The notes under the pieces: model-generated
Databases searched by the model: none
The model's input: only the letters and a program-made list of their open reading frames with translations
What the model was told of the DNA's origin: nothing
In this document: positions 3,988 through 49,949 of the stretch, piece after piece
Numbering within the stretch: the first letter of the stretch is position 1
How the letters are laid out: the number at the start of each line of letters is the position of its first letter
Origin: a virus
DNA: 49,949 bases
Reading direction: 5' to 3' (one strand)
Virus record (IMG/VR): IMGVR_UViG_3300044556_000087
Coordinates: 1-49,949 of that record
Position numbers and translations under genes: made by a program

Positions 3988-5649
3988 ATGGGAAAGAAAA
4001 AACGTAAGCACAGTAAAATGGCGAGGATGCCTACGGAAAAGACGCTGAACATCACACGAAAGGCCGTACGGAACTCCGGGTACTCTGAATCGGGTGCATC
4101 CTTCCGGAGAGGCAGTCTGGCTGCCTGGAGCCCGGTCAAGTCGTCTCCACAGAGCGACATTGATGCCAATCTGGGCGTCCTGCGGGGCCGGTCCTCAGAC
4201 CTCGTACTGGGTACGCCGGTGGCATCGGCTGCCATCAACACGTCCCGGACCAACATTGTCGGTGCCGGCCTTAAAGTAGCGCCTCGTCCTGTGTATCGGC
4301 AGCTGGGATTGACCGCAGAGCAGGCCGAACAATGGAGCCGGCAGGTAAAAGCCGAGTTTAACTTGTGGGCGTCATCTACGGAATGCGATATCTTCGGTCG
4401 GAACAACTTTTATGACATGCAGGACATCGCCTACATGGGCTATGCCATAGATGGTGATTCCTTTGCATTGTTTAAGTACCGGCCGACAGGGCCCCTGATG
4501 CCCTATTCCCTGCGTATCCAGCTCGTCGAAGCGGCGCGGATAAGCAATCCATGGGCTATCAATACTGATGGCATCACATTGCCAGGCAACGTCGTTATGC
4601 ATAACACCAACAACGGCAATCGCATTGTCAATGGGGTGGAAATTGACGATGACGGCAAAGTTGTTGCCTACTACGTAGCCAATCGGTACAGTTACGACCC
4701 GGCTAATATGTATAAGGCGCAGACCTGGGCACGGGTCGAAGCCCGGAGTGCTCAGACGGGGATGCCGAACATTCTGCAGATCTGTCACGATGAACGTGCT
4801 GAACAATATCGCGGTGTACCTAAGCTAGCACCCGTCATTGAAACCATCAAGCAGACTGGGCGCTACACCAATGCCGAATTGACGGCAGCTATCATCAAGG
4901 CTTACTTCACGATGTTCATTAAGGAGACAGCGGACCATGAAACGGGCGATATCCCGATTTCCGACTTGATGAACGGAACGAATAAGCAGTTGCCAGCGCT
5001 GGACCCGAACAGTATTGCTATCGGCCCTGGGACGGTCAATATGCTGCCGCAGGGGTATGACATTACGTCTGTGGACCCGCAACGGTCTCTGTCTACGTTT
5101 GAGCCGTTTGTCAAAGAGCTGACGAAGCAGATCGGCGCATCGCTTGGCATTCCTTACGAAGTGTTGATGAAGTCGTTCAATTCCAGTTATACCGCCAGCA
5201 GGGCTGCCCTCCTGCAGGCCTGGTCCGAATTCAAAATGCGTCGGGTCTGGTTCTCCCGTGATTTTTGCCAGCCGGTCTATGAGGCCTGGCTATCGGAGGC
5301 TATTGTCCGCGGGCGTGTATGGGCCCCGGGTTTCTTCACGGACCCGATTAAGAGGGCTGCCTGGTGCAATTCCGAATGGTTCGGGCCGGTCATGGGCGTT
5401 CTGGATCCCGTGAAGGAAGCGCAGAGTGCACAGCTTCGCATCCTGTTCGGGCTCAGTACTCGTGAAAAGGAAGCAGCCGAAATGACGGGGACCAGCTGGG
5501 ATGAAAACATTGAACGGCTGGCTATCGAAAATGGTCGTCTGGATGCGCATCAGCTGCCGGTCTATCCGGCAATCAATGGCAACGGTGAGGCACCAGCTGA
5601 ACCGGGAACAGGGCCGGTCACACCGGCAGAAGGAGGTACACAACAGTGA
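3988..5649 (+). CDS. Portal protein, lambda (gpB) family
   Basis: 553 aa. NGVEIDDDGKVVAYYV and IGASLGIPYEVLMKSFNSSYTASRAALLQAWSEFKMRRVWF are characteristic of Phage_portal_2. Synteny supports the call. Confidence 0.9.
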   Translation: MGKKKRKHSKMARMPTEKTLNITRKAVRNSGYSESGASFRRGSLAAWSPVKSSPQSDIDANLGVLRGRSSDLVLGTPVASAAINTSRTNIVGAGLKVAPRPVYRQLGLTAEQAEQWSRQVKAEFNLWASSTECDIFGRNNFYDMQDIAYMGYAIDGDSFALFKYRPTGPLMPYSLRIQLVEAARISNPWAINTDGITLPGNVVMHNTNNGNRIVNGVEIDDDGKVVAYYVANRYSYDPANMYKAQTWARVEARSAQTGMPNILQICHDERAEQYRGVPKLAPVIETIKQTGRYTNAELTAAIIKAYFTMFIKETADHETGDIPISDLMNGTNKQLPALDPNSIAIGPGTVNMLPQGYDITSVDPQRSLSTFEPFVKELTKQIGASLGIPYEVLMKSFNSSYTASRAALLQAWSEFKMRRVWFSRDFCQPVYEAWLSEAIVRGRVWAPGFFTDPIKRAAWCNSEWFGPVMGVLDPVKEAQSAQLRILFGLSTREKEAAEMTGTSWDENIERLAIENGRLDAHQLPVYPAINGNGEAPAEPGTGPVTPAEGGTQQ

Positions 5650-8247: not shown

Positions 8248-8481
8248 ATGGATTTAATCGTGAAACGATATACATTGCGCCATAATGGCGTTGATTATGC
8301 GCCGGGTACTCTTTTAAAGAACATCCCGGACGATGAAGCAGCGGAAATCATCCGTGTCGCTGACGGGGATGTAGAAGCGCTTAAAACGGAAGCTGTAGCA
8401 GAAGAAAGCACGCCATCAGCCAGTACTGATAAGGGACTGCCGCCGGTAGATCCGAAAGCTACAGTGGGCCGTAAGAAATAG
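8248..8481 (+). CDS. Hypothetical head protein (lambda Fi position)
   Basis: ATG 8248 lies 8 nt after ggagg (8235-8239). 77 aa. The upstream part of track ORF 8194..8481 covers the hairpin. Confidence 0.5.
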   Translation: MDLIVKRYTLRHNGVDYAPGTLLKNIPDDEAAEIIRVADGDVEALKTEAVAEESTPSASTDKGLPPVDPKATVGRKK

Positions 8482-8482
8482 C

Positions 8483-8839
8483 ATGGCCCTGACAGACTGG
8501 ATACAGGATGACATCGGGGACCTGTTCGAGGATGTCAGCGAGGCGGCGGTATACATATCACAGGGCAATAAAAAGGATGTCCAGGTCATCGCTGAAATAG
8601 GCGTTAACGACACATCCAGGAATGCCCATGATAAGAACCGGAGCTATGGTGATGCGTCCTTTACAGTCCTTGACGACGCTGATAATGGAATAACCGAACC
8701 TCATGCCGGCGATGAGATTCAATTCCATGGTACGACCTATACATTTGTCAGCGTAGAACAGCATAATCCCGGTGCTGTATGGCGCCTGAGATTCGTTATG
8801 CATGAGTCTGCGATGGATTATGGGTCCATGTGGGGGTAG
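8483..8839 (+). CDS. Head-tail joining protein (lambda FII position)
   Basis: 118 aa (lambda FII is about the same size). Tight packing and synteny only. Confidence 0.5.
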   Translation: MALTDWIQDDIGDLFEDVSEAAVYISQGNKKDVQVIAEIGVNDTSRNAHDKNRSYGDASFTVLDDADNGITEPHAGDEIQFHGTTYTFVSVEQHNPGAVWRLRFVMHESAMDYGSMWG

Positions 8840-17307: not shown

Positions 17308-17714
17308 TTGATTATGAGGACCTCATCGGTATCCCGTTTGTTAATCATGGCAGAGACCGCCGGACTGGATTTGACTGCTACGGTCTGGTCATGGAGGTAT
17401 ATCGCCGATTCGGTATCGAGCTTCCGGAATTTACGGCAGACTGGGACGACGAGGATAAGATAAACAGTATCGTACAGCGGGAAGCGGGCTCATCCTCATG
17501 GCAAAGGGTAGAACAGCCGCTCCCGGTGCCATGCCTGGTCGCGCTCCGGATGGGGACACCGCCCGGCATTGTGAATCATACCGGGGTGTACCTTGGTAAT
17601 GGTAAATTTATCCATACACGGGCGAAAATCGGTGCCTGCATCAGCCGGATAGACTCTCCGGCATGGCGGGGAGTTATTGAAGGATTTTATGTATACAGGG
17701 GGCAGCAGACATGA
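17304..17714 (+). CDS. Tail tip NlpC/P60 peptidase (lambda gpK-like, lacking the MPN half)
   Basis: GFDCYGLVMEVYRRFGIELP ... NHTGVYLGNGKFIHT gives the Cys/His/His pattern of NlpC/P60. Overlaps neighbours by 4 nt on both sides. Confidence 0.8.
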   Translation: MIDYEDLIGIPFVNHGRDRRTGFDCYGLVMEVYRRFGIELPEFTADWDDEDKINSIVQREAGSSSWQRVEQPLPVPCLVALRMGTPPGIVNHTGVYLGNGKFIHTRAKIGACISRIDSPAWRGVIEGFYVYRGQQT

Positions 17715-20700
17715 TTACGGTTGTTTTCGTCAAAAACCCGTTCGAACCGCAGAAGAACCGGGAGGTCCATACGCTGCCCTATACCAAAGGCAAGAACGTT
17801 GATTACTATGTACAGCAGTGCACGAAAGAGCTCACGCTGCCGGACATGGTCATTTCCCGGAACAGCTATACCATAAACGGTGCCCAGCTGGTAAAGGATA
17901 ATGACTTTATCGTATTTGCTCCGGTCGTCGGTAAAGGTCATGGGAAGAACCCGCTGCTCATCATAGCAACGGTGGCCCTGTCCGTCGTGGCCATGGGTGT
18001 TGGTGGATGGGTGGCATCCGGTTTTACGTCATACGGGGCTGCGGGTTTAGCTGGCGCTTCAGGCTTTGCTGCTATTGGCGGGTATCTGGCCGCAGCGGCA
18101 GTCATGTTTGTCGGCGGTACGCTCATCCAGCGGGCTTTCGGAACTGCTAATGTGAGCGGGTATAAGAGTAGTTCGGAAAATCCGACCTACTCGTGGTCCG
18201 GTATCCAGACGACAACAGGGCAGGATAATCCGATTCCGATTACATACGGGACGGTCCGCAGCGGTGGCCAGACCATCGGCAAATACATCACGTCTGACTC
18301 GGATAAACAATATCTTAACTGGCTCGTTTCTGCCGGATACGGCCCGCTAAAGATTTACGATGTACAGCTTAATGATAATCCGATTGAAAACTATAAGGAC
18401 GTTAAGCTGGATACCCGGAGCGGGACGAATGATCAGGACATTATCCCGACATTTAACGATACTATCAGCACGAAGACATTAGGGTATGAGCTGCTGGACG
18501 ATGCCTGGCGTACGGACCTGGTAACCGGCACAGCGACTCAGGGGCTCATCATCTATGTAGAATGCTCGAACGGCTTGTATTATGCCAATGATAAAGGCGG
18601 GCTCGATGAGACATTTGTTGAAATCAAGGCCCAATATGCGCCGGAAGGCTCGTCTGACTGGAAAGATTTCCTGAGTCCGCATCATTATCTCGAGTCCAAG
18701 ACGAAATACCTCACACTCAATGACGATGCAGCCCCTATCGGCGAATACGATATCAAATTTAAGAAAAGCGGGGATAGCTGCACTATCACTGTTGGCCAAT
18801 ACAGCACGACCTATGTGACGAAACCGGAACGGACGATTGCTGTCGGTCCGTTTAACTGGGTCACGACGCATGAATTTAGCGCATGGGAAGCCATATTTCA
18901 GGGAAAAGCTTACGTTCGGGCGACGAAGGAATCAGCAGACAACGGCATGATTAAGGGCAATAAGTCATCTGCTATCCGTCGTCAGTATCGGGTGGATAAC
19001 CTGCCTGCAGGTCAGTATCAGGTCCGGATTAAAGTCACATCCCGGGGCTATCCTGTGACTTCGACACGTGCGGCAACACGTATCTGGTGGACCGGGGTTA
19101 GCGGCATCGTGTACGACGATTTTACCTACCCGAACATTGCCCTTATCGGCATCCGGGCCATGGCTACGGACCAGCTGTCCGGCTCTCCGACCCTGAAATT
19201 CATGAAACAGCGGTCTACGGTCTACGTCTGGAACCCGGCAACGAGCGCCTACGAAGAACACGATGCTACGAACCCAGCCTGGGCTGCTTATGATATGGTG
19301 CACCGGGCTAATAAAATAACGGATGCCCGAAACGGGAATACGGTCTATGTACACAGCGGAGCCGATGCCTCGCTGATGCTCTATAATCAATTTGCTGAAT
19401 GGGCGGCATATTGTGACCAGTTTAAACTTAAAATCAATATCGAAATCAACACGTCTGGAGAAATGCTGGACGTCGTGAACCGCTATATAGCTCCTGTCGG
19501 TCGTGGCATCGTCGAACTTTTTGGCACTAAATATGGCTGCTGTTGGGATGGCCCGAAAGAGGCGGTCCAGATGTTCGGCATGGGTAATATCATCACCGGG
19601 ACATTTTCTGAGACATTCCTGCAGACCTCGGACCGGGCGAATGCCGTCGAACTGACGTTTACCAACGCCCAGAAAGACTATGAACGGGATACGGTCAAGG
19701 TCTTCGGGCCTACGTTTGACACGGATGAATACGATACAACAAGCCAGCTCACCTATGACGGTATCACAGGCTATGAGCAGGCATACAGAGAGGCTAAATT
19801 CCAGCTGTACTGCAATGCCTACATGGTCCGTACGGTGTCGTTCCAGGCGGCGATTGACGCCATCGCCTGCACGGTCGGCGACGTCATCTACGTTGCTCAC
19901 GATGTGCCGATGTGGCAGACCAGCGGCAGGATAGCCGCCGTCGATGCGAATACCGTGACGGTCAATGCCGTGATGCGGTCCTATGACAGCTCGAAAACGT
20001 ATACCTTCGCGTATCGGTCCTCAGCGAATGATACCCGGTACGAAATCGGATGCTCCTCGATTACTGTCGGCGACTCGACGACAACAGTCGTCTTATCAAG
20101 TGTACCGGAATCGGCACCGGCTGTCGGGGATATCTTCGATATTGCAGAGGTGAGCAAAGGGACGAAAAAATTCGTAGTCCGCTCCATCAGCCGTACCGAG
20201 GACATGGTCCGGGAAATCGAGGCTATCGAATATAACGAGAACGTGTTTAACGAAAATTACACTATCCCGCCGATGAACTACAGCGACGCCGAGGACGATA
20301 ACGACGTCCGGAACGTCACGAATCTGACCGGACGTCAGATTAACTGGAAGGACAGCTCAGGCCAGCGGCATGCGCGACTGTATCTCTCCTGGTCTTACCC
20401 GGAACGGATGAGCTATCAGCGATTCACGATTTTCCTATCCAGCGACAATTCGTCCTACGTTACCGCTGGGTCATCCATCAACATGTATTTCGAGACTGAG
20501 GTCAACGTTGAGACGACATATCTCGTAAAGGTCGTCACGGTCAACCATCTGCGCAATTCGACCGGCACGACGATTAAAGTCGAGCCGGGCACCGATGAAC
20601 CGCCGGCAGACGTCAAGGCACTCAACGTCGAAAAGATGAGCTCCGGCCTGCGCCGGTACTGGTGGGAATTTACCTATCCAGACCCGGACGACATCGCAGG

Positions 20701-21643
20701 GTTCCGTATGAAGTATACCCAGGGGACAACGCTCAACTGGGGAAACGGCATCCCTGTACAGGATGGGCTCATCACCAGTCAGCCATACGAAACGCAGACG
20801 GTCCGGCAGGGTGTCCATGCAGTCATGATTAAGGCTGTCGACAATGCGGGAAACGAGAGCATCAATTTCGCGTACTGCCTGCTGGATATGGGCGACCTGC
20901 TCGAACAAAACGTTCTGTATTACAAAGACTATGCCGCCAATAACTGGGCAGAAACAAAGCATAACGGCTACCTTGAAACAGACGGCTATCTGTATCCGGT
21001 CAACAATACGGATATGTGGGAATCGGCTGCCAGCTACCGCTGGGATAATGCCGATGCCGCTGCCTGGTCGAACAACTGGCAGCCGTACACCGTGACTGCC
21101 GAGTTTACCGCTCCCGTTAGCGGTCAGATGTGGTTAAAATACGATATCGACGGTCCGGCCATCGTCTACTATCGCGAGGTGCTGGATACGGCAGCATGGG
21201 ACAGCGACGATGCGCCAGCGTGGATCAGCGTCAATACGGCTGCCTGGGAACTTGACGAAATGAAACTCTGGAAACAGTATTCTGACCGCATCAACATTGC
21301 AGCCGGCGATGAAATCCAGATCCAGATAGTCGCCTTGAACAACAACAACGAAAAAACGGTCGTCAAAGGGCTGTCGGTATACATCGACGTCCCAGACCGG
21401 AACGAACATTTCGAGGATCTGACGATTCCGGCGACAGGGATTGAACTGCCGATAGTGACACCGCACTATCACACGACAGCGGTGCACATCGACTCGGTAC
21501 AGGGCGGCAGCTCGACGACCATCCTGCAGCCGGTCATCGTGAGCCGGAATCCATGCGTGGTGAAACTCATCAACCAGAACGGAGAGGCCGTAGCCGGCAC
21601 GGTCGATATCAGCTGGCAGGGATACGTAGAGGAGGTTTTATAA
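17711..21643 (+). CDS. Fused tail assembly protein I-like / host specificity protein J-like central tip protein
   Basis: Residues 1-75 resemble the gpI beta-grasp part, followed by a Gly/Ala-rich hydrophobic stretch and PIPITYGTVRSGGQ. The later YPNIALIGIRAMATDQLSG...NPAWAAYDMVHR...AEWAAYCDQ parallels lambda J (YPNTALVGVQVDSEQFG...NMAWCLWDMLTHPRYG...IGQYCDQ). Confidence 0.85.
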   Translation: MITVVFVKNPFEPQKNREVHTLPYTKGKNVDYYVQQCTKELTLPDMVISRNSYTINGAQLVKDNDFIVFAPVVGKGHGKNPLLIIATVALSVVAMGVGGWVASGFTSYGAAGLAGASGFAAIGGYLAAAAVMFVGGTLIQRAFGTANVSGYKSSSENPTYSWSGIQTTTGQDNPIPITYGTVRSGGQTIGKYITSDSDKQYLNWLVSAGYGPLKIYDVQLNDNPIENYKDVKLDTRSGTNDQDIIPTFNDTISTKTLGYELLDDAWRTDLVTGTATQGLIIYVECSNGLYYANDKGGLDETFVEIKAQYAPEGSSDWKDFLSPHHYLESKTKYLTLNDDAAPIGEYDIKFKKSGDSCTITVGQYSTTYVTKPERTIAVGPFNWVTTHEFSAWEAIFQGKAYVRATKESADNGMIKGNKSSAIRRQYRVDNLPAGQYQVRIKVTSRGYPVTSTRAATRIWWTGVSGIVYDDFTYPNIALIGIRAMATDQLSGSPTLKFMKQRSTVYVWNPATSAYEEHDATNPAWAAYDMVHRANKITDARNGNTVYVHSGADASLMLYNQFAEWAAYCDQFKLKINIEINTSGEMLDVVNRYIAPVGRGIVELFGTKYGCCWDGPKEAVQMFGMGNIITGTFSETFLQTSDRANAVELTFTNAQKDYERDTVKVFGPTFDTDEYDTTSQLTYDGITGYEQAYREAKFQLYCNAYMVRTVSFQAAIDAIACTVGDVIYVAHDVPMWQTSGRIAAVDANTVTVNAVMRSYDSSKTYTFAYRSSANDTRYEIGCSSITVGDSTTTVVLSSVPESAPAVGDIFDIAEVSKGTKKFVVRSISRTEDMVREIEAIEYNENVFNENYTIPPMNYSDAEDDNDVRNVTNLTGRQINWKDSSGQRHARLYLSWSYPERMSYQRFTIFLSSDNSSYVTAGSSINMYFETEVNVETTYLVKVVTVNHLRNSTGTTIKVEPGTDEPPADVKALNVEKMSSGLRRYWWEFTYPDPDDIAGFRMKYTQGTTLNWGNGIPVQDGLITSQPYETQTVRQGVHAVMIKAVDNAGNESINFAYCLLDMGDLLEQNVLYYKDYAANNWAETKHNGYLETDGYLYPVNNTDMWESAASYRWDNADAAAWSNNWQPYTVTAEFTAPVSGQMWLKYDIDGPAIVYYREVLDTAAWDSDDAPAWISVNTAAWELDEMKLWKQYSDRINIAAGDEIQIQIVALNNNNEKTVVKGLSVYIDVPDRNEHFEDLTIPATGIELPIVTPHYHTTAVHIDSVQGGSSTTILQPVIVSRNPCVVKLINQNGEAVAGTVDISWQGYVEEVL

Positions 21644-22573
21644 ATGGCAGATGTAGAGAAATTGCTGGATGTCGCGCCATACCTGAAATACCCGTCGGAT
21701 GAAAGCCCAACGACTGAACAGCAGTATCAGGATTTTGTTAAAAACGTACATACGACATTAGCGAATACGCTGAACACGGTGAAACTGTGGCAACCGTCTA
21801 CGGCATATGCTGCGGACGAAATCATCTCCAGCCCGAATATGCAGCCGAACACGGTGGCCAAGGTCACGACAGCAGGTACCAGCAACAATATCGAGCCGAC
21901 CTGGACCGCTGCCGGAACGACTGTCGAAGACAACGGCTGCACGTATCTGATGGTCAGGAAATGCCAGGAATCGGCAACAGCCGACGAGGCCAAGGCCGGA
22001 ACGGATACGATGAAAATCGTCACACCGGCAGCACTGGCCGCGGTGCTGGCAGACTTTAAAAAACAAGTCATCAACGCGGCTCATCCGGTCGGAGAAATCT
22101 GGGAAACGACGACCGGCGACGACCCGAATAAACTCTGGTCATGGCAGAAATGGGTCAAGATGGACGCCGGCCGTGTGCTGGTAAGTGCCGGTACATACAC
22201 CGAAAACGGGACGTCGTACACGTACACACTCGGGGCAACCGGTGGCGAGGCGAAGCACACAATCACCATCAGTGAAATAGCATCACACAATCACGGTGCC
22301 AGCATCAGTACAGCTAATCTGACAGGTACCTGGTCAGCTAGTGGCTCACAGGGCCTTTCCAACAGCCCGAGCAATAGTTTTAGTGGCATCATCAGCGGTT
22401 CCGACTGGTCCGGTGATACTCACAGTGGCAGTAATGGTAATAACACACCAAAGACAATCACGATTAACGCCAGCCATAGCCACTCCGTTACGATAAACAC
22501 GACCGGCAACGGCTCAGCACACGAAAACCGCATGCCTTACACTGTAGTCAACCGTTGGAAGAGGACAGCCTAG
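21644..22573 (+). CDS. Tail fibre A (tail-collar-type receptor-binding protein), expressed copy
   Basis: 309 aa. LWQPSTAYAADEIISSP...EPTWTAAGTTV, DEAKAGTDTMKIVTPAAL, HPVGEIWETT...GGEAKHTITISEIASHNHG, and C-terminal GSAHENRMPYTVVNRWKRTA (collar-domain-like HxH / HxN-PY motifs). Confidence 0.8.
   Translation: MADVEKLLDVAPYLKYPSDESPTTEQQYQDFVKNVHTTLANTLNTVKLWQPSTAYAADEIISSPNMQPNTVAKVTTAGTSNNIEPTWTAAGTTVEDNGCTYLMVRKCQESATADEAKAGTDTMKIVTPAALAAVLADFKKQVINAAHPVGEIWETTTGDDPNKLWSWQKWVKMDAGRVLVSAGTYTENGTSYTYTLGATGGEAKHTITISEIASHNHGASISTANLTGTWSASGSQGLSNSPSNSFSGIISGSDWSGDTHSGSNGNNTPKTITINASHSHSVTINTTGNGSAHENRMPYTVVNRWKRTA
22268..22278 (+). repeat. Candidate crossover site A-left (ATCAGTGAAAT) inside fibre A
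   Basis: 11-bp core encoding (T)ISE(I). Its exact reverse complement is at 22871-22881, in the same codon register of the inverted cassette. Confidence 0.6.
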
Positions 22574-22881
22574 GCCGTCCGTTTCCAGCGATTAATAACT
22601 TGATAGGGCTGCCGGTTTTCATGCGCAGAACCAGAGCCCGTAGCGGAAATGCTGATATTGTGGTTATGCGAAGCTTTAATATACAACGCTCTGGTAGCAT
22701 CATTGTAATTTGATTGCCCTGTATGCACGCCATAGCGGCCGGCTGATACCGAGATTACGCCACTAGTCGATACAGAGGATGCGGCAAGTATCCCCATATT
22801 ACTATCAGTCGAGGTGATTGACCCGCTAAGGGATGTCGTTGAGCACGAAACATTGTGATCGTGAGTAGCCATTTCACTGAT
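22570..22881 (-). other. Silent inverted alternative C-terminal cassette for fibre A (about 100 aa)
   Basis: Minus-strand frame reads TISEMATHDHNVSCS...ASHNHNISISATGSGSAHENRQPYQVINRWKRTA*. It has the same start and end motifs as the expressed tip with a different middle. No RBS or promoter of its own; the ATG of track ORF 22570..22917 lies in the antisense of the next gene's RBS. Confidence 0.75.
22871..22881 (-). repeat. Candidate crossover site A-right (inverted copy of ATCAGTGAAAT)
   Basis: atttcactgat on the + strand is the reverse complement of 22268-22278. Flanking bases keep partial similarity (..GC....CAC.ATCAC..TG). Confidence 0.6.
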
Positions 22882-22902
22882 AGTTCGAAAGGAGAGATGT
22901 AT

Positions 22903-23352
22903 ATGAAGGTTTTTCAAATTTTAAAAGGACAGGTCCTCGTCATTGACGGGGACAAGCAATACTCGGATACCGTCGATAATTTCAAGACCGATGCTGGCCT
23001 TTCCAGCACTCCTGATATGGTCATCTACGACGACAATCAGGAGTGCTGTGTCGTCGATGGCAATTTTCTCGCCTACCCGAACGCACTCTATCAGTCGTAT
23101 ATCGACCGTATCGCTGAGCTCATCGCGGCCAAGGCTAAGCGCGAGTATGTCGCACCAGCCGAGCCAACCGCCGAAGAAAAGCTGGCCGCTGCGAAAGCAC
23201 AGCTCAAAGCCGATTATGAGGCCGCTGTGGAGTCGCTGACGTCTGATATGGCCACGGCACTGCTCCGGGGCGATACCGATGCCCAGAAGTCTATCCAGTC
23301 CGATTTTGCAGATTTACAGGATGCATACAAAGAAGAAAGCGAGGCACTCTAA
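22903..23352 (+). CDS. Hypothetical protein, possible fibre assembly/accessory protein
   Basis: ATG 22903 follows aaaggagag. 149 aa with a helical Ala/Glu/Lys-rich C-terminus. Lies between the two fibre loci. The functional guess is positional only. Confidence 0.55.
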   Translation: MKVFQILKGQVLVIDGDKQYSDTVDNFKTDAGLSSTPDMVIYDDNQECCVVDGNFLAYPNALYQSYIDRIAELIAAKAKREYVAPAEPTAEEKLAAAKAQLKADYEAAVESLTSDMATALLRGDTDAQKSIQSDFADLQDAYKEESEAL

Positions 23353-23486
23353 TGAAATTCAAACTCCCGAAACGCTGCGAATACTGCGCTCATAAATTAG
23401 TCGATGGTAAATGCGTCAATCCTGACTGCATCGCCTACACGAAACCGGAAACGACGACCACAGAAACGGCAGGTGACAGCAAATGA
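23352..23486 (+). CDS. Small zinc-ribbon-like hypothetical protein (44 aa)
   Basis: MKFKLPKRCEYCAHKLVDGKCVNPDCIAYTK... Start overlaps the previous stop (TAATG) and the stop overlaps the fibre B start (ATGA). Below the ORF-track size cutoff. Confidence 0.4.
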   Translation: MKFKLPKRCEYCAHKLVDGKCVNPDCIAYTKPETTTTETAGDSK

Positions 23487-24352
23487 GCATCCCGGCAGTA
23501 AAGAGTTTTACGAATTACAACAAATATAAAACCGAAACAGGGTACACCAAGCAGGGCGAACTGCAGCAGTACCTGCAGAACCAGAACGACGTACTAAGCG
23601 CCACAGCACAGGTCCTGCTCTGGCAGCCGGAAACATTGTACACCGCAGGCCAGCTGGTCTCCAGTCCATCCATGACGGCAGGGACGCTGGCACGGGTCAC
23701 AACGGCCGGGAAGACCAGTGACACGGAGCCAACCTGGACCGCATCAGGGACAACGGTAACGGACGGTACCGTCACATGGACGGTCACGAAAGCCGTCACG
23801 GACGCCGACAAAGCCACGAGCGACGAGGCTAAAGCGGGGACCAGTGACAAAGTCATCACGGCATCAACACTCAAAGCCGCCATGGATGCCGCTATCTCGT
23901 CAGCCATCAAGACGGCCACAGCAGCCATCGAGAAGCAGGTCAAGTTGGACGCACATCCTGTCGGCTCGTACTATTTTTCCGATGACAGCACGAGCCCTGC
24001 CGACCTTTTCGGAGGCACGTGGGAAGCACTGCCAGCAGGTTACACGCTCATCGCGCAGGGCTCTGGCACCGATGATTTCGGCTCGTTTAGCTACACGGCT
24101 GGACAGAAATACGGGGAACGACTCCACAAACTCACCGTCGATGAATTGGCATCACATTCGCACAGCTATACAACTATTCCTAAGACATGGGACCAAGTAA
24201 ATTACAGTAAAGATGATTTAGCTAACTGGAACGAATCGGCACGTCAGGCATCGGCAGGCGTTACATACTGGACTGATTCAACAGGCGGCGACAAAGCTCA
24301 TAATAATGTTCCGCCGGTTAAAGCCGTATATGCATGGCTTCGTATAGCCTGA
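23483..24352 (+). CDS. Tail fibre B (paralogue of fibre A), expressed copy with tip V1
   Basis: 289 aa. LLWQPETLYTAGQLVSSP...EPTWTASGTTV, SDEAKAGTSDKVITASTL, HPVGSYYFSDD...ERLHKLTVDELASHSHS, and C-terminus AHNNVPPVKAVYAWLRIA. Confidence 0.8.
   Translation: MSIPAVKSFTNYNKYKTETGYTKQGELQQYLQNQNDVLSATAQVLLWQPETLYTAGQLVSSPSMTAGTLARVTTAGKTSDTEPTWTASGTTVTDGTVTWTVTKAVTDADKATSDEAKAGTSDKVITASTLKAAMDAAISSAIKTATAAIEKQVKLDAHPVGSYYFSDDSTSPADLFGGTWEALPAGYTLIAQGSGTDDFGSFSYTAGQKYGERLHKLTVDELASHSHSYTTIPKTWDQVNYSKDDLANWNESARQASAGVTYWTDSTGGDKAHNNVPPVKAVYAWLRIA
24135..24147 (+). repeat. Candidate crossover site B-S1 (CCGTCGATGAATT) in expressed fibre B
   Basis: Encodes (T)VDEL. The same core in the same codon register heads every downstream cassette. 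Confidence 0.6.
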
Positions 24353-24355
24353 GCG

Positions 24356-24368
24356 CCGTCGAGGAATT
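24356..24368 (+). repeat. Candidate crossover site B-S2 (CCGTCGAGGAATT)
   Basis: One mismatch to S1. Starts 4 nt after the fibre B stop codon. Confidence 0.5.
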
Positions 24369-24573
24369 ACCGAACCATCATCATGCTATATATGCCGGAT
24401 ACGGCTACGATACAAGTGGCACTGCAGATGCTTACTGTTATCAGCATTGGGCTAATAACGACCAAAGGTGGCATGAAGAAGATACTATCAGCACGTCTTA
24501 TATCGGAGGTGGGACTGCCCATGCGAATCTGTCACCCAGTGTTGCAGTGTATGGCTGGAAACGTACCGCCTAG
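24356..24573 (+). other. Silent direct-orientation cassette V2 for fibre B
   Basis: Reads AVEELPNHHHAIYAGYGYDTSG...GGGTAHANLSPSVAVYGWKRTA*. The ATG of track ORF 24334..24573 lies inside the fibre B 3' end and has no RBS. Confidence 0.7.
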
Positions 24574-24577
24574 CGGC

Positions 24578-24589
24578 CCGTCGATGAAT
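24578..24589 (+). repeat. Candidate crossover site B-S3 (CCGTCGATGAAT)
   Basis: 12/12 match to S1. Starts 5 nt after the stop of cassette V2. Confidence 0.6.
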
Positions 24590-24795
24590 CAGCGCCACAC
24601 AACCACGGCCTTAGATTAAAAGGCGGTACATCTACAGATGCTAAGGACTGCTTTTTATGGGATTGGACTACTGATTGCAAGGAATCGACTCAGCCTAACG
24701 ACTCGTGGGATTTTATAGAACCATCAGGAGGCGGTCAGGCACATAATAACATCCAACCATCGTTAGCGGTCTACGCTTGGCGGCGCCAAGCATAA
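24578..24795 (+). other. Silent direct-orientation cassette V3 for fibre B (no start codon at all)
   Basis: Same frame as V2, open directly after its stop: RPVDESAPHNHGLRLKGGTSTDAKDCFLWDWTTDCKESTQPNDSWDFIEPSGGGQAHNNIQPSLAVYAWRRQA* (stop 24793-24795). Absent from the ORF track because it has no Met. Confidence 0.7.
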
Positions 24796-25009
24796 ACTGC
24801 CAAAACGGGCTGAACGTTGTTATGAGCCACGTCATTGCCAATGTACTCGGTAAACACGTTGCCGCCTTTGCCATCATCAGAATTGTCTGTATCCCATGCA
24901 CAGTTTAATACGTTAAGAATTTTTTCACCAGATTGTTTGCAAGTGATGCACACCGGCGAGCCGTCTTTCCAGATGATTTTTGCCCTAACTTTAGCTAACT
25001 CATCGACGG
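24771..25009 (-). other. Silent inverted cassette V4' for fibre B
   Basis: Minus strand reads SVDELAKVRAKIIWKDGSPVCITCKQSGEK...GNDVAHNNVQPVLAVYAWRRQA*. It overlaps V3 tail-to-tail by 25 nt. Confidence 0.7.
24997..25009 (-). repeat. Candidate crossover site B-S4 (inverted; CCGTCGATGAGTT on the minus strand)
   Basis: aactcatcgacgg on the + strand. The 10-bp core CCGTCGATGA is identical to S1 and S3 but inverted. Confidence 0.6.
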
Positions 25010-25051
25010 AGAACAACTCGGACAGCATCGGGCACGTTCGGACGGCAGACA

Positions 25052-25177: not shown

Positions 25178-26146
25178 CTACACACGGTCAATAGCCTTTT
25201 TCAGGTCAGCAAGCGTCTTGTGCGTGTATACTCCCTTTGTGATGCCTGGCCGAGCATGACCGAGAATCATGCGGATGGTCGTCTCATTGACTTCGGCACG
25301 GTCGAGCAGAGTTGCCAGCGTATGGCGTGCTTCATGGGGCGTGTGCTTCATGCTGACGGCTTTCATGGCTCTATCCCAGAGACGGCGGAAGCTGTCATAA
25401 GTCGCACAAGGACAAATCTGGCCGCTTGCTTTCCGCTCGATGAGGTACGGTAAGATTTTGTGATGGATGGGGATTTTGCGGATGCCTGCCGCTGTCTTCG
25501 ATTTCTTGATGTCGATGTATCGCTGTCGCGGCTTAATGTCAGCAGGAGTCAGCGCAAGATACTCACCTACGCGCATACCCGTATAGATGAGTATGAGTAC
25601 ATCAATGACGCCGTCGACGTCGGTCGAGCGCCAGAGCTTGCCTATCTGCCTAGCCGTAAAAGGCTTTTTCTTAAACATGATAACGTGCTTAGGCAATTCC
25701 ACAAATGGGCTTAGGTCATGGTCGACGATGCCGTTTTTGATTGCCCACTTGTACATCTGCGAGAGCAGAACACGGCACTTTTTACGGGTGCAGTATCCGG
25801 CGGGGACAGCATCGACAGCGGCCTGCAAATCTGGATATGTGATTGACGCAAAAGGCATGGCATGGAGCTGCTCTAGATGCCGATAGCTGATGCTATAGGC
25901 CGTCTGTGACGATTTGCCTATCATTTCAAAGTTCCTTGACCTCCATGCGTAGTAGACGGCAGTAAAGGTCAATTCTCGGGAGGGCGTGCAGTGATTCAAC
26001 TCAACCAAAAACTCGAACGCTTCTTGGTAGCTCTGGAAATATCCCAGGGCTTTTTGTTTGCCATCGATTGTCTTTTTAACGACAAACGGGCGCCGCCGAT
26101 TGCCTTGTAGTCGGTACACGGTACCATATCCATTTGGTAATTTCAT
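25178..26146 (-). CDS. Tyrosine recombinase (second integrase-family gene); candidate fibre-cassette invertase
   Basis: C-terminal ARHTLATLLDRAEVNETTIRMILGHARPGITKGVYTH (R..H..GH..Y catalytic pattern) and N-terminal KLPNGYGTVYRLQGNRRRPFVVKK arm-type domain. Likely start is ATG 26146 after ggaaagga; track ORF extends to 26191. Confidence 0.85.
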   Translation of the reverse strand: MKLPNGYGTVYRLQGNRRRPFVVKKTIDGKQKALGYFQSYQEAFEFLVELNHCTPSRELTFTAVYYAWRSRNFEMIGKSSQTAYSISYRHLEQLHAMPFASITYPDLQAAVDAVPAGYCTRKKCRVLLSQMYKWAIKNGIVDHDLSPFVELPKHVIMFKKKPFTARQIGKLWRSTDVDGVIDVLILIYTGMRVGEYLALTPADIKPRQRYIDIKKSKTAAGIRKIPIHHKILPYLIERKASGQICPCATYDSFRRLWDRAMKAVSMKHTPHEARHTLATLLDRAEVNETTIRMILGHARPGITKGVYTHKTLADLKKAIDRV

Positions 26147-30463: not shown

Positions 30464-31570
30464 TTACAGGATGCTGTCCATCACGGAGAGAGCTTCTTTT
30501 TCGCGCTTTTCCGTGATGCTGTCATAGATATTAGCCGTCGTGTACACCGAGGCATGACCGAGGCGCTTCGAAACGTAGTCCAAGGCAATGCCGTTCTCGA
30601 TTAACATGGTAGCGTGAGTATGCCGGAACGAGTGGAAGGACAGCCCGCCGAAGTGCTCCCGGCACCAGAGGTTGAAGTACCGGGTCTTGTTGCTGGTGAG
30701 TGGTTTCCCGTTCTCCTCGGTGCACACCGCGTCCGATCGGCGGTAGTACCGTCCATACTCAAACTGGTTCCGCTCCTGCCAGAGCTTCTGGGCTTTCAGC
30801 TCGGCTGCCAATTTCTGGCCAAAGGTGATGACCCGCAGTGATGATGCAGTCTTCGGCGACTCGATACGGGCATCCCCAGTCTTATCGTATTTATTGCCTA
30901 CGACCTCCAGCGTATGCGCTTTTAGATCTACATTCGCCCAGCGCAGGGCCAGGCATTCCCCGAGCCGCATCCCGGTGCAGTAGGAGAGCATGCACGGCAT
31001 GTGGAGCTGATTCCCTCGCGGAAATCGTTCGAAAATCTGCTGAATCTGGTCAGCCGTGAAGACCTTAATCATCTGGAACTGCGGGGCATACCGGGGCACC
31101 CGTACGTTATCCATGGGGTTGATGGTAAGGTACCTGCGATTGGCCACACACCAACGGAACGAGGACCGCAGGACCGCTGCAATAGATTTCAGGGTACCTC
31201 GTGCATACGTATTCCGCAAACCCGTGATGTAGTCCTGCAGCATCGGAGTCGTGATGTCCTTCAGCCGGACCTTGGCAAAAGCAGGAGTCAGGTGATTATC
31301 GACGATGTTTTCATAGGCATCTACCGTGTTCGGTTTCAGGTTGATGCGGACTTCCTTTTCCATCCATTCCTTCAAGAAATCCGGATAGAGCATACTGGAC
31401 GGTTCGAAAAATTTCCCGGTCCGGTCTATCTCCTGCATGGCAGCACGATAAGCCCGGGCAGCCTCAGCACGGCTAAAACCGCCAAAGTGCTCGTGCTTAT
31501 GGTACCTGCCCATAGCATCCGTTTCGTTTATGGTATAGTACCATCTATCCTTGATTTGTCGTAAAAACAT
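30464..31570 (-). CDS. int: Phage integrase (tyrosine recombinase), lysogeny module
   Basis: HSFRHTHATMLIENGIALDYVSKRLGHASVYTTANIYDS catalytic region and N-terminal KDRWYYTINETD...GGFSRAEAARAY arm-binding-type domain. Likely start is ATG 31570 after aggaggctgatttac; track ORF extends to 31618. Confidence 0.9.
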   Translation of the reverse strand: MFLRQIKDRWYYTINETDAMGRYHKHEHFGGFSRAEAARAYRAAMQEIDRTGKFFEPSSMLYPDFLKEWMEKEVRINLKPNTVDAYENIVDNHLTPAFAKVRLKDITTPMLQDYITGLRNTYARGTLKSIAAVLRSSFRWCVANRRYLTINPMDNVRVPRYAPQFQMIKVFTADQIQQIFERFPRGNQLHMPCMLSYCTGMRLGECLALRWANVDLKAHTLEVVGNKYDKTGDARIESPKTASSLRVITFGQKLAAELKAQKLWQERNQFEYGRYYRRSDAVCTEENGKPLTSNKTRYFNLWCREHFGGLSFHSFRHTHATMLIENGIALDYVSKRLGHASVYTTANIYDSITEKREKEALSVMDSIL

Positions 31571-31685
31571 GTAAATCAGCCTCCTAATCATGGCGGATAG
31601 CGGGCTGATGTGGTACAATAAAACTGTAGATCAGCCCTAAATATCTACACATCGCCGGTCCGGTACTGGTAATACCATCCGGCAC

Positions 31686-49474: not shown

Positions 49475-49949
49475 AGAAAAAGAAATCCGAGCAGCTAGAA
49501 GATATTGTGCGAAAAATCGCACAAAGTCAAACGAGTCTTACAGAAAAGTATGAACTGTACAGACAGTTGGTGGCGACACAGAAGATAATGAAACGACCAC
49601 CGAAGAAGTTTAAAAGCGGAAGCTGGCTATTATACGCGCTATGCGACGAGGTAGTCAACGAGTATCTGGCGGCACCGGCTATCAGTAAGCCGAAATTTCT
49701 GGGCGATTATATCCGTGAACTGGATGCAGAGTTACAGCGGTTCCGGGATAAATTCAATGGGGTATCGGATAAGCATATAAACGAGTACGAGCTATATTCG
49801 TTTACCAGCGTCCGGCATAAGCGGCGGATAGAGAAACGGTATGCCGAGTTACATCCGGACTTAGCCGAGGCGGATGCCCTGCTTCGAGGGTTGACCTATC
49901 TGAGACGGGCTGGCATCCGGAACGACGTATTAGAAAAACGATTTGATGA
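49471..49949 (+). CDS. Hypothetical protein, 5' part of the junction-spanning CDS (continues at 128..239 after the repeat)
   Basis: TTG 49471 overlaps the previous stop (TTGA) and is preceded by ggagag. The frame stays open to the window end and is in register with 3..239. The start codon is uncertain. Confidence 0.55.
   Translation, partial: MKKKKSEQLEDIVRKIAQSQTSLTEKYELYRQLVATQKIMKRPPKKFKSGSWLLYALCDEVVNEYLAAPAISKPKFLGDYIRELDAELQRFRDKFNGVSDKHINEYELYSFTSVRHKRRIEKRYAELHPDLAEADALLRGLTYLRRAGIRNDVLEKRFD
49823..49949. repeat. Right copy of the exact 127-bp terminal direct repeat (identical to 1-127)
   Basis: Base-for-base identity with 1-127 read directly from the sequence. Confidence 0.95.

Follow-up and report, generated by a model that had tools for sequence, protein, structure and literature searches.

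A fibre gene with two alternative tips

The 49,949-nucleotide stretch of viral DNA analysed here (IMG/VR record IMGVR_UViG_3300044556_000087; hereafter the window) carries a gene for a 309-residue tail fibre, fibre A, that is followed by a second, silent version of its own C-terminal tip. The expressed tip (cassette A1) and the silent tip (cassette A2) lie on opposite strands and converge, and the pair is bracketed by inverted copies of ATCAGTGAAAT. We call this arrangement locus A (Table 1). On the evidence set out below, locus A is probably a programmed DNA-inversion switch in the side-tail-fibre gene of this temperate phage.

Both tips are compatible in frame with the same constant N-terminal part. 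The original prediction described ATCAGTGAAAT as an 11-bp inverted repeat, and the window holds two exact copies, one on each strand. The worry that the 11-mer might be frequent elsewhere is settled by a scan of the window, which gave no other exact copy and one copy with a single mismatch (position 5642). The two arms also share the codon context that had been claimed for them, each being read in frame as ACC/ACT ATC AGT GAA AT. The likeness between the tips holds too: A1 and A2 are 49% identical, with both HxH motifs and a GSAHENRxPYxVxNRWKRTA end in common and a middle that differs. Their stop codons overlap within the palindrome GCCTAGGC (22568-22575), and the A2 frame has no start codon of its own in its register. 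An in-frame swap of about 100 residues had been foreseen; inversion is indeed predicted to give an in-frame protein of 311 residues, and a related contig, L035, encodes a fibre of that length (P0001, 311 residues). The next gene would be spared, again as proposed, since its ATG (22903) lies 21 nt past the right arm and the ribosome-binding site, AAAGGAGAG, is outside the repeat.

Residues 143-308 of fibre A match the Pfam family Gp10_C (PF21939; E=6.9e-14, 53.4 bits, gathering cutoff 27), and the crossover, at residue 209, falls near profile position 70 of 139. The silent cassettes match the same profile weakly, below the cutoff, and at positions 69/71-139 only. Together these two observations imply that the switch would exchange the C-terminal half of Gp10_C, with both HxH motifs and the variable stretch between them.

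Two further features of the locus were considered and set aside. The direct repeat CACACAATCAC lies on either side of the left core (22256-22266 and 22284-22294, in different reading frames) and could have been a pair of binding arms; neither the right site nor the relatives have it, and it is probably there by chance. A TTG-started open reading frame (ORF) of 115 residues (22570-22917, minus strand) was rejected as a separate gene because its 5' end overlaps the opposite-strand start region of the next gene and because its homologues are expressed only as fusions.

Table 1. Features of the two fibre loci and of related genes in the window
Feature	Position	Strand	Remarks
GpJ-type central fibre gene	17711-21643		Directly before fibre A; Pfam, PHROG
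Fibre A ORF	21644-22573	+	309 residues
Fibre A constant N-terminal part	21644-22267	+	Residues 1-208; Pfam Gp10_C, PHROG tail protein families
Left recombination core, ATCAGTGAAAT	22268-22278	+	Exact repeat; breakpoint at homologous position in relatives
Right recombination core, reverse complement of ATCAGTGAAAT	22871-22881	-	Exact repeat
Imperfect inverted repeat around the cores	22265-22294 / 22855-22884		30 nt, 80%
Cassette A1, expressed tip	22265-22573	+	TISEIASHNH...NRWKRTA, 102 residues; orthologue expressed in P0003/L036
Cassette A2, silent convergent tip	22884-22570	-	TISEMATHDH...NRWKRTA, 104 residues; orthologue expressed in P0001/L035
Parental junctions, locus A			Left ...ATCACCATCAGTGAAATAGCATCACAC; right ...GTGAGTAGCCATTTCACTGATAGTTCG
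Predicted recombinant junctions, locus A			Left ...ATCACCATCAGTGAAATGGCTACTCAC; right ...GTGTGATGCTATTTCACTGATAGTTCG; for the inverted locus also written CACCATCAGTGAAATGGCTACTCAC and GTGATGCTATTTCACTGATAGTTCG
Conserved 149-residue gene	22903-23352	+	Outside invertible segment; no Pfam family; PHROG 32639, function unknown
Fibre B ORF	23483-24352	+	Pfam Gp10_C, E=1e-15, 59.3 bits (cutoff 27)
Fibre B constant part	23483-24133	+
Locus B, four-cassette shufflon	24132-25012		Three further tip cassettes after fibre B
Locus B sites, core CCGTCGAKGA	24135, 24356, 24578; 25009	+, +, +; -
Cassette B1, expressed	24134-24352	+
Cassette B2	about 24356-24573	+
Cassette B3	24577-24795	+
Cassette B4	25010-24771	-
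Tyrosine recombinase, candidate invertase	25178-26146	-	322 residues from ATG; Pfam PF00589, E=2.2e-15
Canonical lysogeny integrase	30464-31618		384 residues, SAM-like domain; Pfam PF00589

Inverted isomers in relatives

Relatives of this phage, drawn from viral contigs, metagenome contigs, one genome per species and exact-protein look-ups, hold inverted isomers of the locus with breakpoints at the core. In the lineage whose core is that of the window, contig L035 aligns with window positions 20827-22298 on the plus strand (86.7%) and then with 22884-22300 on the minus strand (83.8%), so that a homologous segment of 585 bp is inverted. Contig L036 has the orientation of the window; between L035 and L036 the flank is 88.6% identical and the segment 91.3% identical but inverted. 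The breakpoint that separates L035 from L036 and the window falls at the position homologous to the left core. The tip of P0001, the L035 fibre, is 83% identical to the silent tip of the window and 55% identical to the expressed one, and P0003 of L036 carries an A1-type tip (91% identical).

Isomer pairs also occur within sister lineages, where the flanks are 97-100% identical overall. L046 and L047, from different human-gut assemblies, are 100% identical over 6633 bp of flank; the next 871 bp are 100% identical too, in the opposite orientation. L015 and L016 have flanks that are 98.9% identical and differ by a 562-bp inversion; all four of their junctions switch inside a common TCACTGAGAGTGAACTG, at the codon position homologous to the window core. 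L085 and L086, Acidaminococcus intestini prophages with an identical recombinase protein, are 99.9% identical save for a permuted locus B, the second fibre locus. Rearranged or inverted cassette blocks likewise distinguish L064 from L066 and L013 from L019. The opposite orientation of L035 and the sister-lineage pairs thus bear out the proposal that the segment is invertible.

The ends of contigs point the same way. L035, L036, L045, L060, L062, L065 and L069 all end at, inside or a few bases from a recombination core, L036 stopping 16 bp beyond the position of the right core, which suggests that mixed orientations break short-read assemblies. A second contig, L037, from a Joint Genome Institute (JGI) sample, is 100% identical to window positions 21625-23180 in the same orientation, and is uninformative on inversion.

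Could the isomers be assembly artefacts, or products of general homologous recombination? Metagenome assemblies can misjoin at repeats, and the cassettes have conserved 3' blocks in common between which RecA-type events might occur. However, the cores in common span 7-17 bp; usual assembly k-mers are longer than that, and the homology that RecA requires is far longer. Moreover, the breakpoints fall at one codon position in many independent assemblies, the products are always in frame, and the finished chromosome of Megasphaera hexanoica has matching architecture. Misjoins at short repeats or RecA-type exchange are therefore a very remote explanation.

Sequence and behaviour of the cores

The cores are uniform within a locus and variable between loci. 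We compared the 12 nt ending in the conserved Glu codon at about 40 loci: cassettes of one locus differ by 0-2 nt, and variation is free between lineages and between loci A and B. Cores observed include ATCAGTGAA, GTTGATGAA, ACCGGGGAA, ACCGAGGAA, GAGAGTGAA, ACTGATGAA, GTCGATGA and GTCGGGGAA. In the 6 nt that precede the core, sites of one locus show no relation to each other. The residues encoded by the core vary with it (TISE, TTGE, TESE, TVDE), so the peptide does not explain the nucleotide identity. By this comparison, sites within one locus evolve in concert.

L046 and L047 narrow down where the strands would be exchanged. All of their junctions have only 7 bp, CCACCGG, in common. Immediately 3' of these, a polymorphism moves together with the cassette, which places strand exchange within a stretch of about 7 bp. 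The overlap region of tyrosine recombinases is 6-8 bp long and must match between partners, without itself being recognised; an exchange stretch of about 7 bp would fit such a region.

An aberrant use of the sites occurs in one lineage. In L061 and L064, which are about 90% identical, a fibre-B site has recombined with a look-alike, ACTGCCGGGGAAT, present in inverted orientation in codons 12-16 of the recombinase gene (positions 2700-2790 of L061, and 8470-8550 and 10150-10230 of L064; compare 10520-10600 of L067). As a result the recombinase gene is split, and fibre B is joined to it out of context. The junction sequences of L061 and L064 differ, pointing to independent events. ACTGCCGGGGAAT resembles the locus-B core of that lineage, and the partners share nothing beyond those 13 nt; a site thus seems to need no more than some 13 bp, and this supports the view that the 11-14-bp core of the window suffices. 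The look-alike is kept in L010, L054, L067, L068 and L071, has one mismatch in L052 and is absent from the recombinase gene of the window.

A candidate invertase

The original prediction did not mention a recombinase, and the window encodes one 2.3 kb downstream of locus A, just past locus B. This 322-residue tyrosine recombinase is, on sequence and synteny, most likely the enzyme that catalyses the inversion of locus A. Pfam scans of selected window ORFs gave PF00589 as the sole recombinase family, in two genes, this one and the 384-residue integrase, to which it is about 24% identical; no long frame of the window has a match to the catalytic motif of serine recombinases. The catalytic R, HxxR, H and Y are all present and are invariant in 36 homologues; homologues are 322-324 residues long. 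Its N-terminal 60 residues were unrecognised in the Pfam scan. In the structural model (predicted local distance difference test, pLDDT, 84) the N-terminus forms a domain of three strands plus a helix, and the model is structurally most similar to Tn1549 Int and to full-length lambda Int, with about 345 columns aligned to the latter by Foldseek. As modelled, the protein is an integrase-type, three-domain recombinase with an arm-type N-terminal domain.

The gene keeps close company with fibre cassettes. Close homologues (56-89% identical) are invariably flanked by the last fibre cassette on one side and by the holin/lysin genes on the other; their carriers are Megasphaera hexanoica (L038), Allisonella (L089), the metagenome contig L090 and a contractile-tail prophage of A. 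intestini (L085-88). Homologues at 77%, 71% and 56% identity each adjoin Gp10_C fibre genes, in siphovirus-type and in contractile-tail prophages. Among loci with at least 4.5 kb of downstream sequence, 21 have both cassettes and recombinase, five have cassettes only (two of them with recombinase remnants), none has the recombinase only and eight have neither (Fisher p = 7e-5, uncorrected for phylogeny).

It is quite improbable, in our judgement, that the 384-residue integrase or a host recombinase does the inverting and that the 322-residue gene is a second integrase with another purpose. Both its fold and its nearest cultured homologues place the 322-residue protein with the integrases of the lambda-Int/Tn1549-Int type. 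The distant homologues, 28-35% identical, come from cultured phages of Butyrivibrio and Ruminococcus gnavus; they resemble ordinary lysogeny integrases and occupy their positions. Recombinases also act in trans in some inversion systems, as proposed for a second bifidophage locus (Mavrich et al., PMC6109161). Against this stands strict synteny: the gene directly follows the last locus-B cassette across siphovirus-type and contractile-tail prophages of several genera, it never occurs without cassettes in the sampled loci, and in prophages 2-5 kb separate it from the host junction, which it does not adjoin. The recombination of the shufflon with the look-alike inside the recombinase gene, in two lineages, adds evidence of proximity, not of catalysis.

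In genomes of Acidaminococcus, Mitsuokella, Allisonella and Megasphaera we also noted recombinase homologues that are 71-86% identical. In L085-L088 the fibre-cassette-recombinase module stands behind Baseplate_J/Mu gp48 genes, and in siphovirus-type phages (the window, L089) behind a GpJ-type central fibre. It appears that the module passes from one tail type to another.

A working switch or a relic

Several observations weigh against the reading of locus A as a programmed switch. The 11-mer taken alone is within chance: the window has 37 inverted 11-mer pairs at most 1 kb apart (about 20 distinct repeats), and Markov-1 simulations predict 11 ± 4.6 such pairs. A PDB sequence search gave no significant match for the fibre, and the AlphaFold model of the fibre A monomer is weak (pLDDT 72); its best Foldseek match, the C-terminal domain of T4 gp10 (E=0.04), agrees with Pfam without being independent proof, and the model is too poor to confirm the fold. 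The closest isomers, L035 and L036, are 12-13% diverged, which indicates inversion during evolution and not necessarily ongoing switching. The predicted fusion protein has no 100% match among 5.8 billion proteins, the best being P0001 at 87%. The exact recombinant-junction pattern is unmatched in viral contigs, a result that says nothing about isomers of this phage, and a degenerate four-junction pattern is unmatched in metagenome contigs, a collection that lacks the window itself and so is uninformative on this phage. The link between recombinase and inversion is correlative, the counted loci being phylogenetically related, and five loci have cassettes without an intact recombinase.

As to the first point, the case for ATCAGTGAAAT as a recombination site is made by its placement, register and codon identity and by the family-wide pattern, not by its length. 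ATCAGTGAAAT is the longest in-register exact match between A1 and A2 and lies at homologous codons of homologous cassettes. The three complete codons within it (Ile, Ser, Glu) do not differ between the arms; at conserved residues generally, the codon is identical at only 18 of 51 (35%), and in the strongly conserved C-terminal block nearly every third codon position differs.

An alternative is a frozen relic. The tips and the repeat would then be left over from a past inversion or duplication, meaningful flipping would have ceased, and the silent tip would be a mere reservoir for rare recombination. Neither the fusion-protein nor the junction-pattern search found an isomer of the exact genome, the nearest isomers are diverged to the extent given above, and cassettes persist beside a deleted or disrupted recombinase gene in L012, L016, L056, L061 and L064. 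Nevertheless, we regard a relic as unlikely. Both cores are exact, the recombinase gene is intact with all of its catalytic residues, and the silent cassette keeps a full-length open frame and its conserved motifs. Furthermore, sister-lineage isomers with 100% and 99.9% identical flanks show that the system is currently active. That the segment flips in this particular phage is our inference.

Locus B and a proposed mechanism

Locus A belongs with a second locus to one system, of which it is the simpler part, a point absent from the original prediction. Downstream of it follow, in order, the 149-residue gene, a cysteine-rich ORF of 44 residues, fibre B, three more fibre-B cassettes and the tyrosine recombinase. 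Cassettes B3 and B4 converge and their 3' ends overlap. Permuted forms of the homologous locus B are found in relatives. Across the system as a whole there are two loci per phage, each with 2 to at least 7 cassettes. Some relatives have up to seven fibre-A cassettes or six fibre-B sites (L043 4517-6290; L003, L008, L055). Multi-cassette relatives have convergent pairs with head-to-head sites about 15 bp apart; locus A of the window is the minimal, two-cassette form.

We propose the following mechanism. The unit that flips would be a 592-bp segment with the two convergent tips, bounded by inverted copies of the short core ACYATCAGTGAAAT. Recombination inside the core would turn the segment around, so that the constant part is fused in frame with the other tip and the first tip falls silent. 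The 322-residue recombinase would be the enzyme of locus A and would shuffle the four cassettes of fibre B too. Recombination between the two loci would delete or invert the intervening genes; the mismatch during strand exchange between the cores of locus A (ATCAGTG...) and locus B (GTCGATG...) is expected to block it.

Presumably the two tips bind different receptors, and a tip swap changes receptor specificity. A role in receptor binding is suggested by the Pfam family, by the position of the gene after central fibre or baseplate genes and by analogy with other fibre switches.

A broader picture is tentative, and we hold it with rather little confidence. One lambda-Int-type recombinase, with its arm-type N-terminal domain, would have been recruited to serve as the dedicated invertase of two shufflons that are insulated from each other only by their cores, and cores would be free to drift as long as the sites of a locus change together. 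The look-alike site in the recombinase gene of one lineage would be used repeatedly, splitting the gene and freezing the fibre, and may act as a built-in off switch. The module would move between siphovirus-type and contractile-tail phages of gut Negativicutes.

Comparison with known inversion systems

Inversion is a known way of switching fibre tips (Mu Gin, the R64 shufflon, Rin, BV01); what is new here is the phage group. Locus A has the general features of such systems: alternative 3' segments in opposite orientation, inverted repeats in register, and an adjacent tyrosine recombinase with its catalytic residues. Among relatives, both orientations occur in nature, with breakpoints at the repeats.

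In the shufflon of R64 and other IncI1 plasmids, the Rci tyrosine recombinase acts on sfx sites to exchange the pilV tips of a conjugative pilus adhesin. As here, a tyrosine recombinase inverts segments between short sites of which only the core and one flank are conserved, the alternative C-terminal tips form convergent pairs, and multiple segments give many permutations. The two systems differ in their target (a pilus adhesin there, a phage fibre here) and in their recombinase, which here has the integrase-type three-domain layout and not that of Rci; the sfx site (GTGCCAATCCGGT...) has no match here at up to 2 mismatches.

Gin with the G segment of Mu, Cin of P1, Min of p15B and Pin of e14 are serine invertases with 26-bp sites, an enhancer and Fis, and a fibre assembly gene lies inside the segment. 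There too, inversion of a segment with convergent alternative ends switches the C-termini of tail fibres, and a change of host range is expected. By contrast, we found no serine recombinase here, and the segment does not include the conserved downstream gene.

Type I restriction hsdS inversion systems also use tyrosine recombinases, for example pneumococcal ivr/CreX, usually with longer repeats. Common to both is an in-frame crossover inside a conserved coding motif that exchanges specificity domains, although the protein is a DNA-specificity subunit there and a virion protein here. A systematic survey covers this class; at programmed inversions it saw an enrichment of both tail-fibre genes and tyrosine recombinases (Milman et al. 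2023, PMC9881135).

BV01-like phages of Phocaeicola vulgatus have a tail-fibre shufflon flanked by a recombinase (2026 preprint, PMC13596623). These and the surveyed prophage inversions (PMC13596623, PMC9881135) resemble our system in being gut or prophage fibre genes with multi-cassette inversion beside a recombinase and directional motifs of about 10 bp. In BV01, however, the motif is TGGGAGAACT, the variants differ by stop position and not by the exchange of homologous tips, and host phylum and fibre family are other ones.

The Rin shufflon of Bifidobacterium prophages, also reported from Eggerthella lenta prophages (Mavrich et al. 2018, PMC6109161; PMC8778435), is similar in many respects. 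In both systems a phage-encoded tyrosine recombinase, separate from the lysogeny integrase, adjoins a receptor-binding gene whose N-terminal part is constant and whose C-terminus comes in several alternative cassettes. Crossover takes place at short asymmetric repeats of about 11 bp, and isomers are found among related prophages. Nevertheless, the Rin recombinase is described as XerD-like and as lacking an arm-type N-terminal domain (PMC6109161), whereas the recombinase here is modelled with such a domain and aligns to full-length lambda Int. Rin fibres are of the TP901-1 or 1358 receptor-binding type and not of the Gp10_C type, and the Rin rix site, TTCCCTAACCC, has no match here at up to 1 mismatch. 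Here, moreover, there are two separate loci with different cores, and the hosts are Negativicutes, those of Rin being Actinobacteria. By the features tested, namely site sequence, recombinase domain layout and fibre family, locus A falls outside both the Rin and the R64 families.

In an incomplete literature search we found no description of this system in phages of Negativicutes. It is widespread in human-gut metagenomes and in prophages of Megasphaera, Acidaminococcus, Mitsuokella and Allisonella, genera for which, to our knowledge, almost no phage biology has been worked out. With switchable tips, a single phage genotype could hedge between the receptor variants that its hosts present. The switch bears on host-range prediction, on metagenome assembly, where contigs break at the sites, and on the design of phage tools for gut anaerobes. 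Its natural core variants, cassette numbers and two loci make it a good system in which to learn how an arm-domain tyrosine recombinase is restricted to inversion and how cores co-evolve. We see moderate interest in the two loci with distinct cores that are apparently served by one integrase-type recombinase, in the free drift of cores, in the recurrent self-disruption of the recombinase gene in one lineage and in the spread of the module between phage types of the human gut.

Genome and surroundings

The first 127 bp of the window are identical to the last (1-127 and 49823-49949), so the phage genome is complete and circular, at about 49.8 kb. By Pfam it has the gene set of a temperate lambda-like siphovirus: a gpA-type terminase, a lambda-type portal, an E-type capsid protein and a tail tube protein, together with the GpJ-type central fibre, a lysin and replication genes. 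A megablast search with the locus gave no match among cultured phage records. The host is probably a member of the Negativicutes. Scans for promoters and terminators around locus A gave background levels.

The 149-residue gene always sits between the two fibre loci in the close relatives L001-L003, L038 and L048. There it is 89-94% identical, and the constant parts of the fibres are 62-80% identical; its product may be a fibre accessory protein. Within this gene we noticed a perfect 13-bp inverted repeat, CAGCACTCCTGAT / ATCAGGAGTGCTG (23004-23016 and 23036-23048), with a 19-nt spacer. The 44-residue ORF between this gene and fibre B (23352-23486) has four cysteines (CxxC...CxxxxC) and is possibly a zinc ribbon; in the A. 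intestini prophages a 43-residue gene occupies the matching position.

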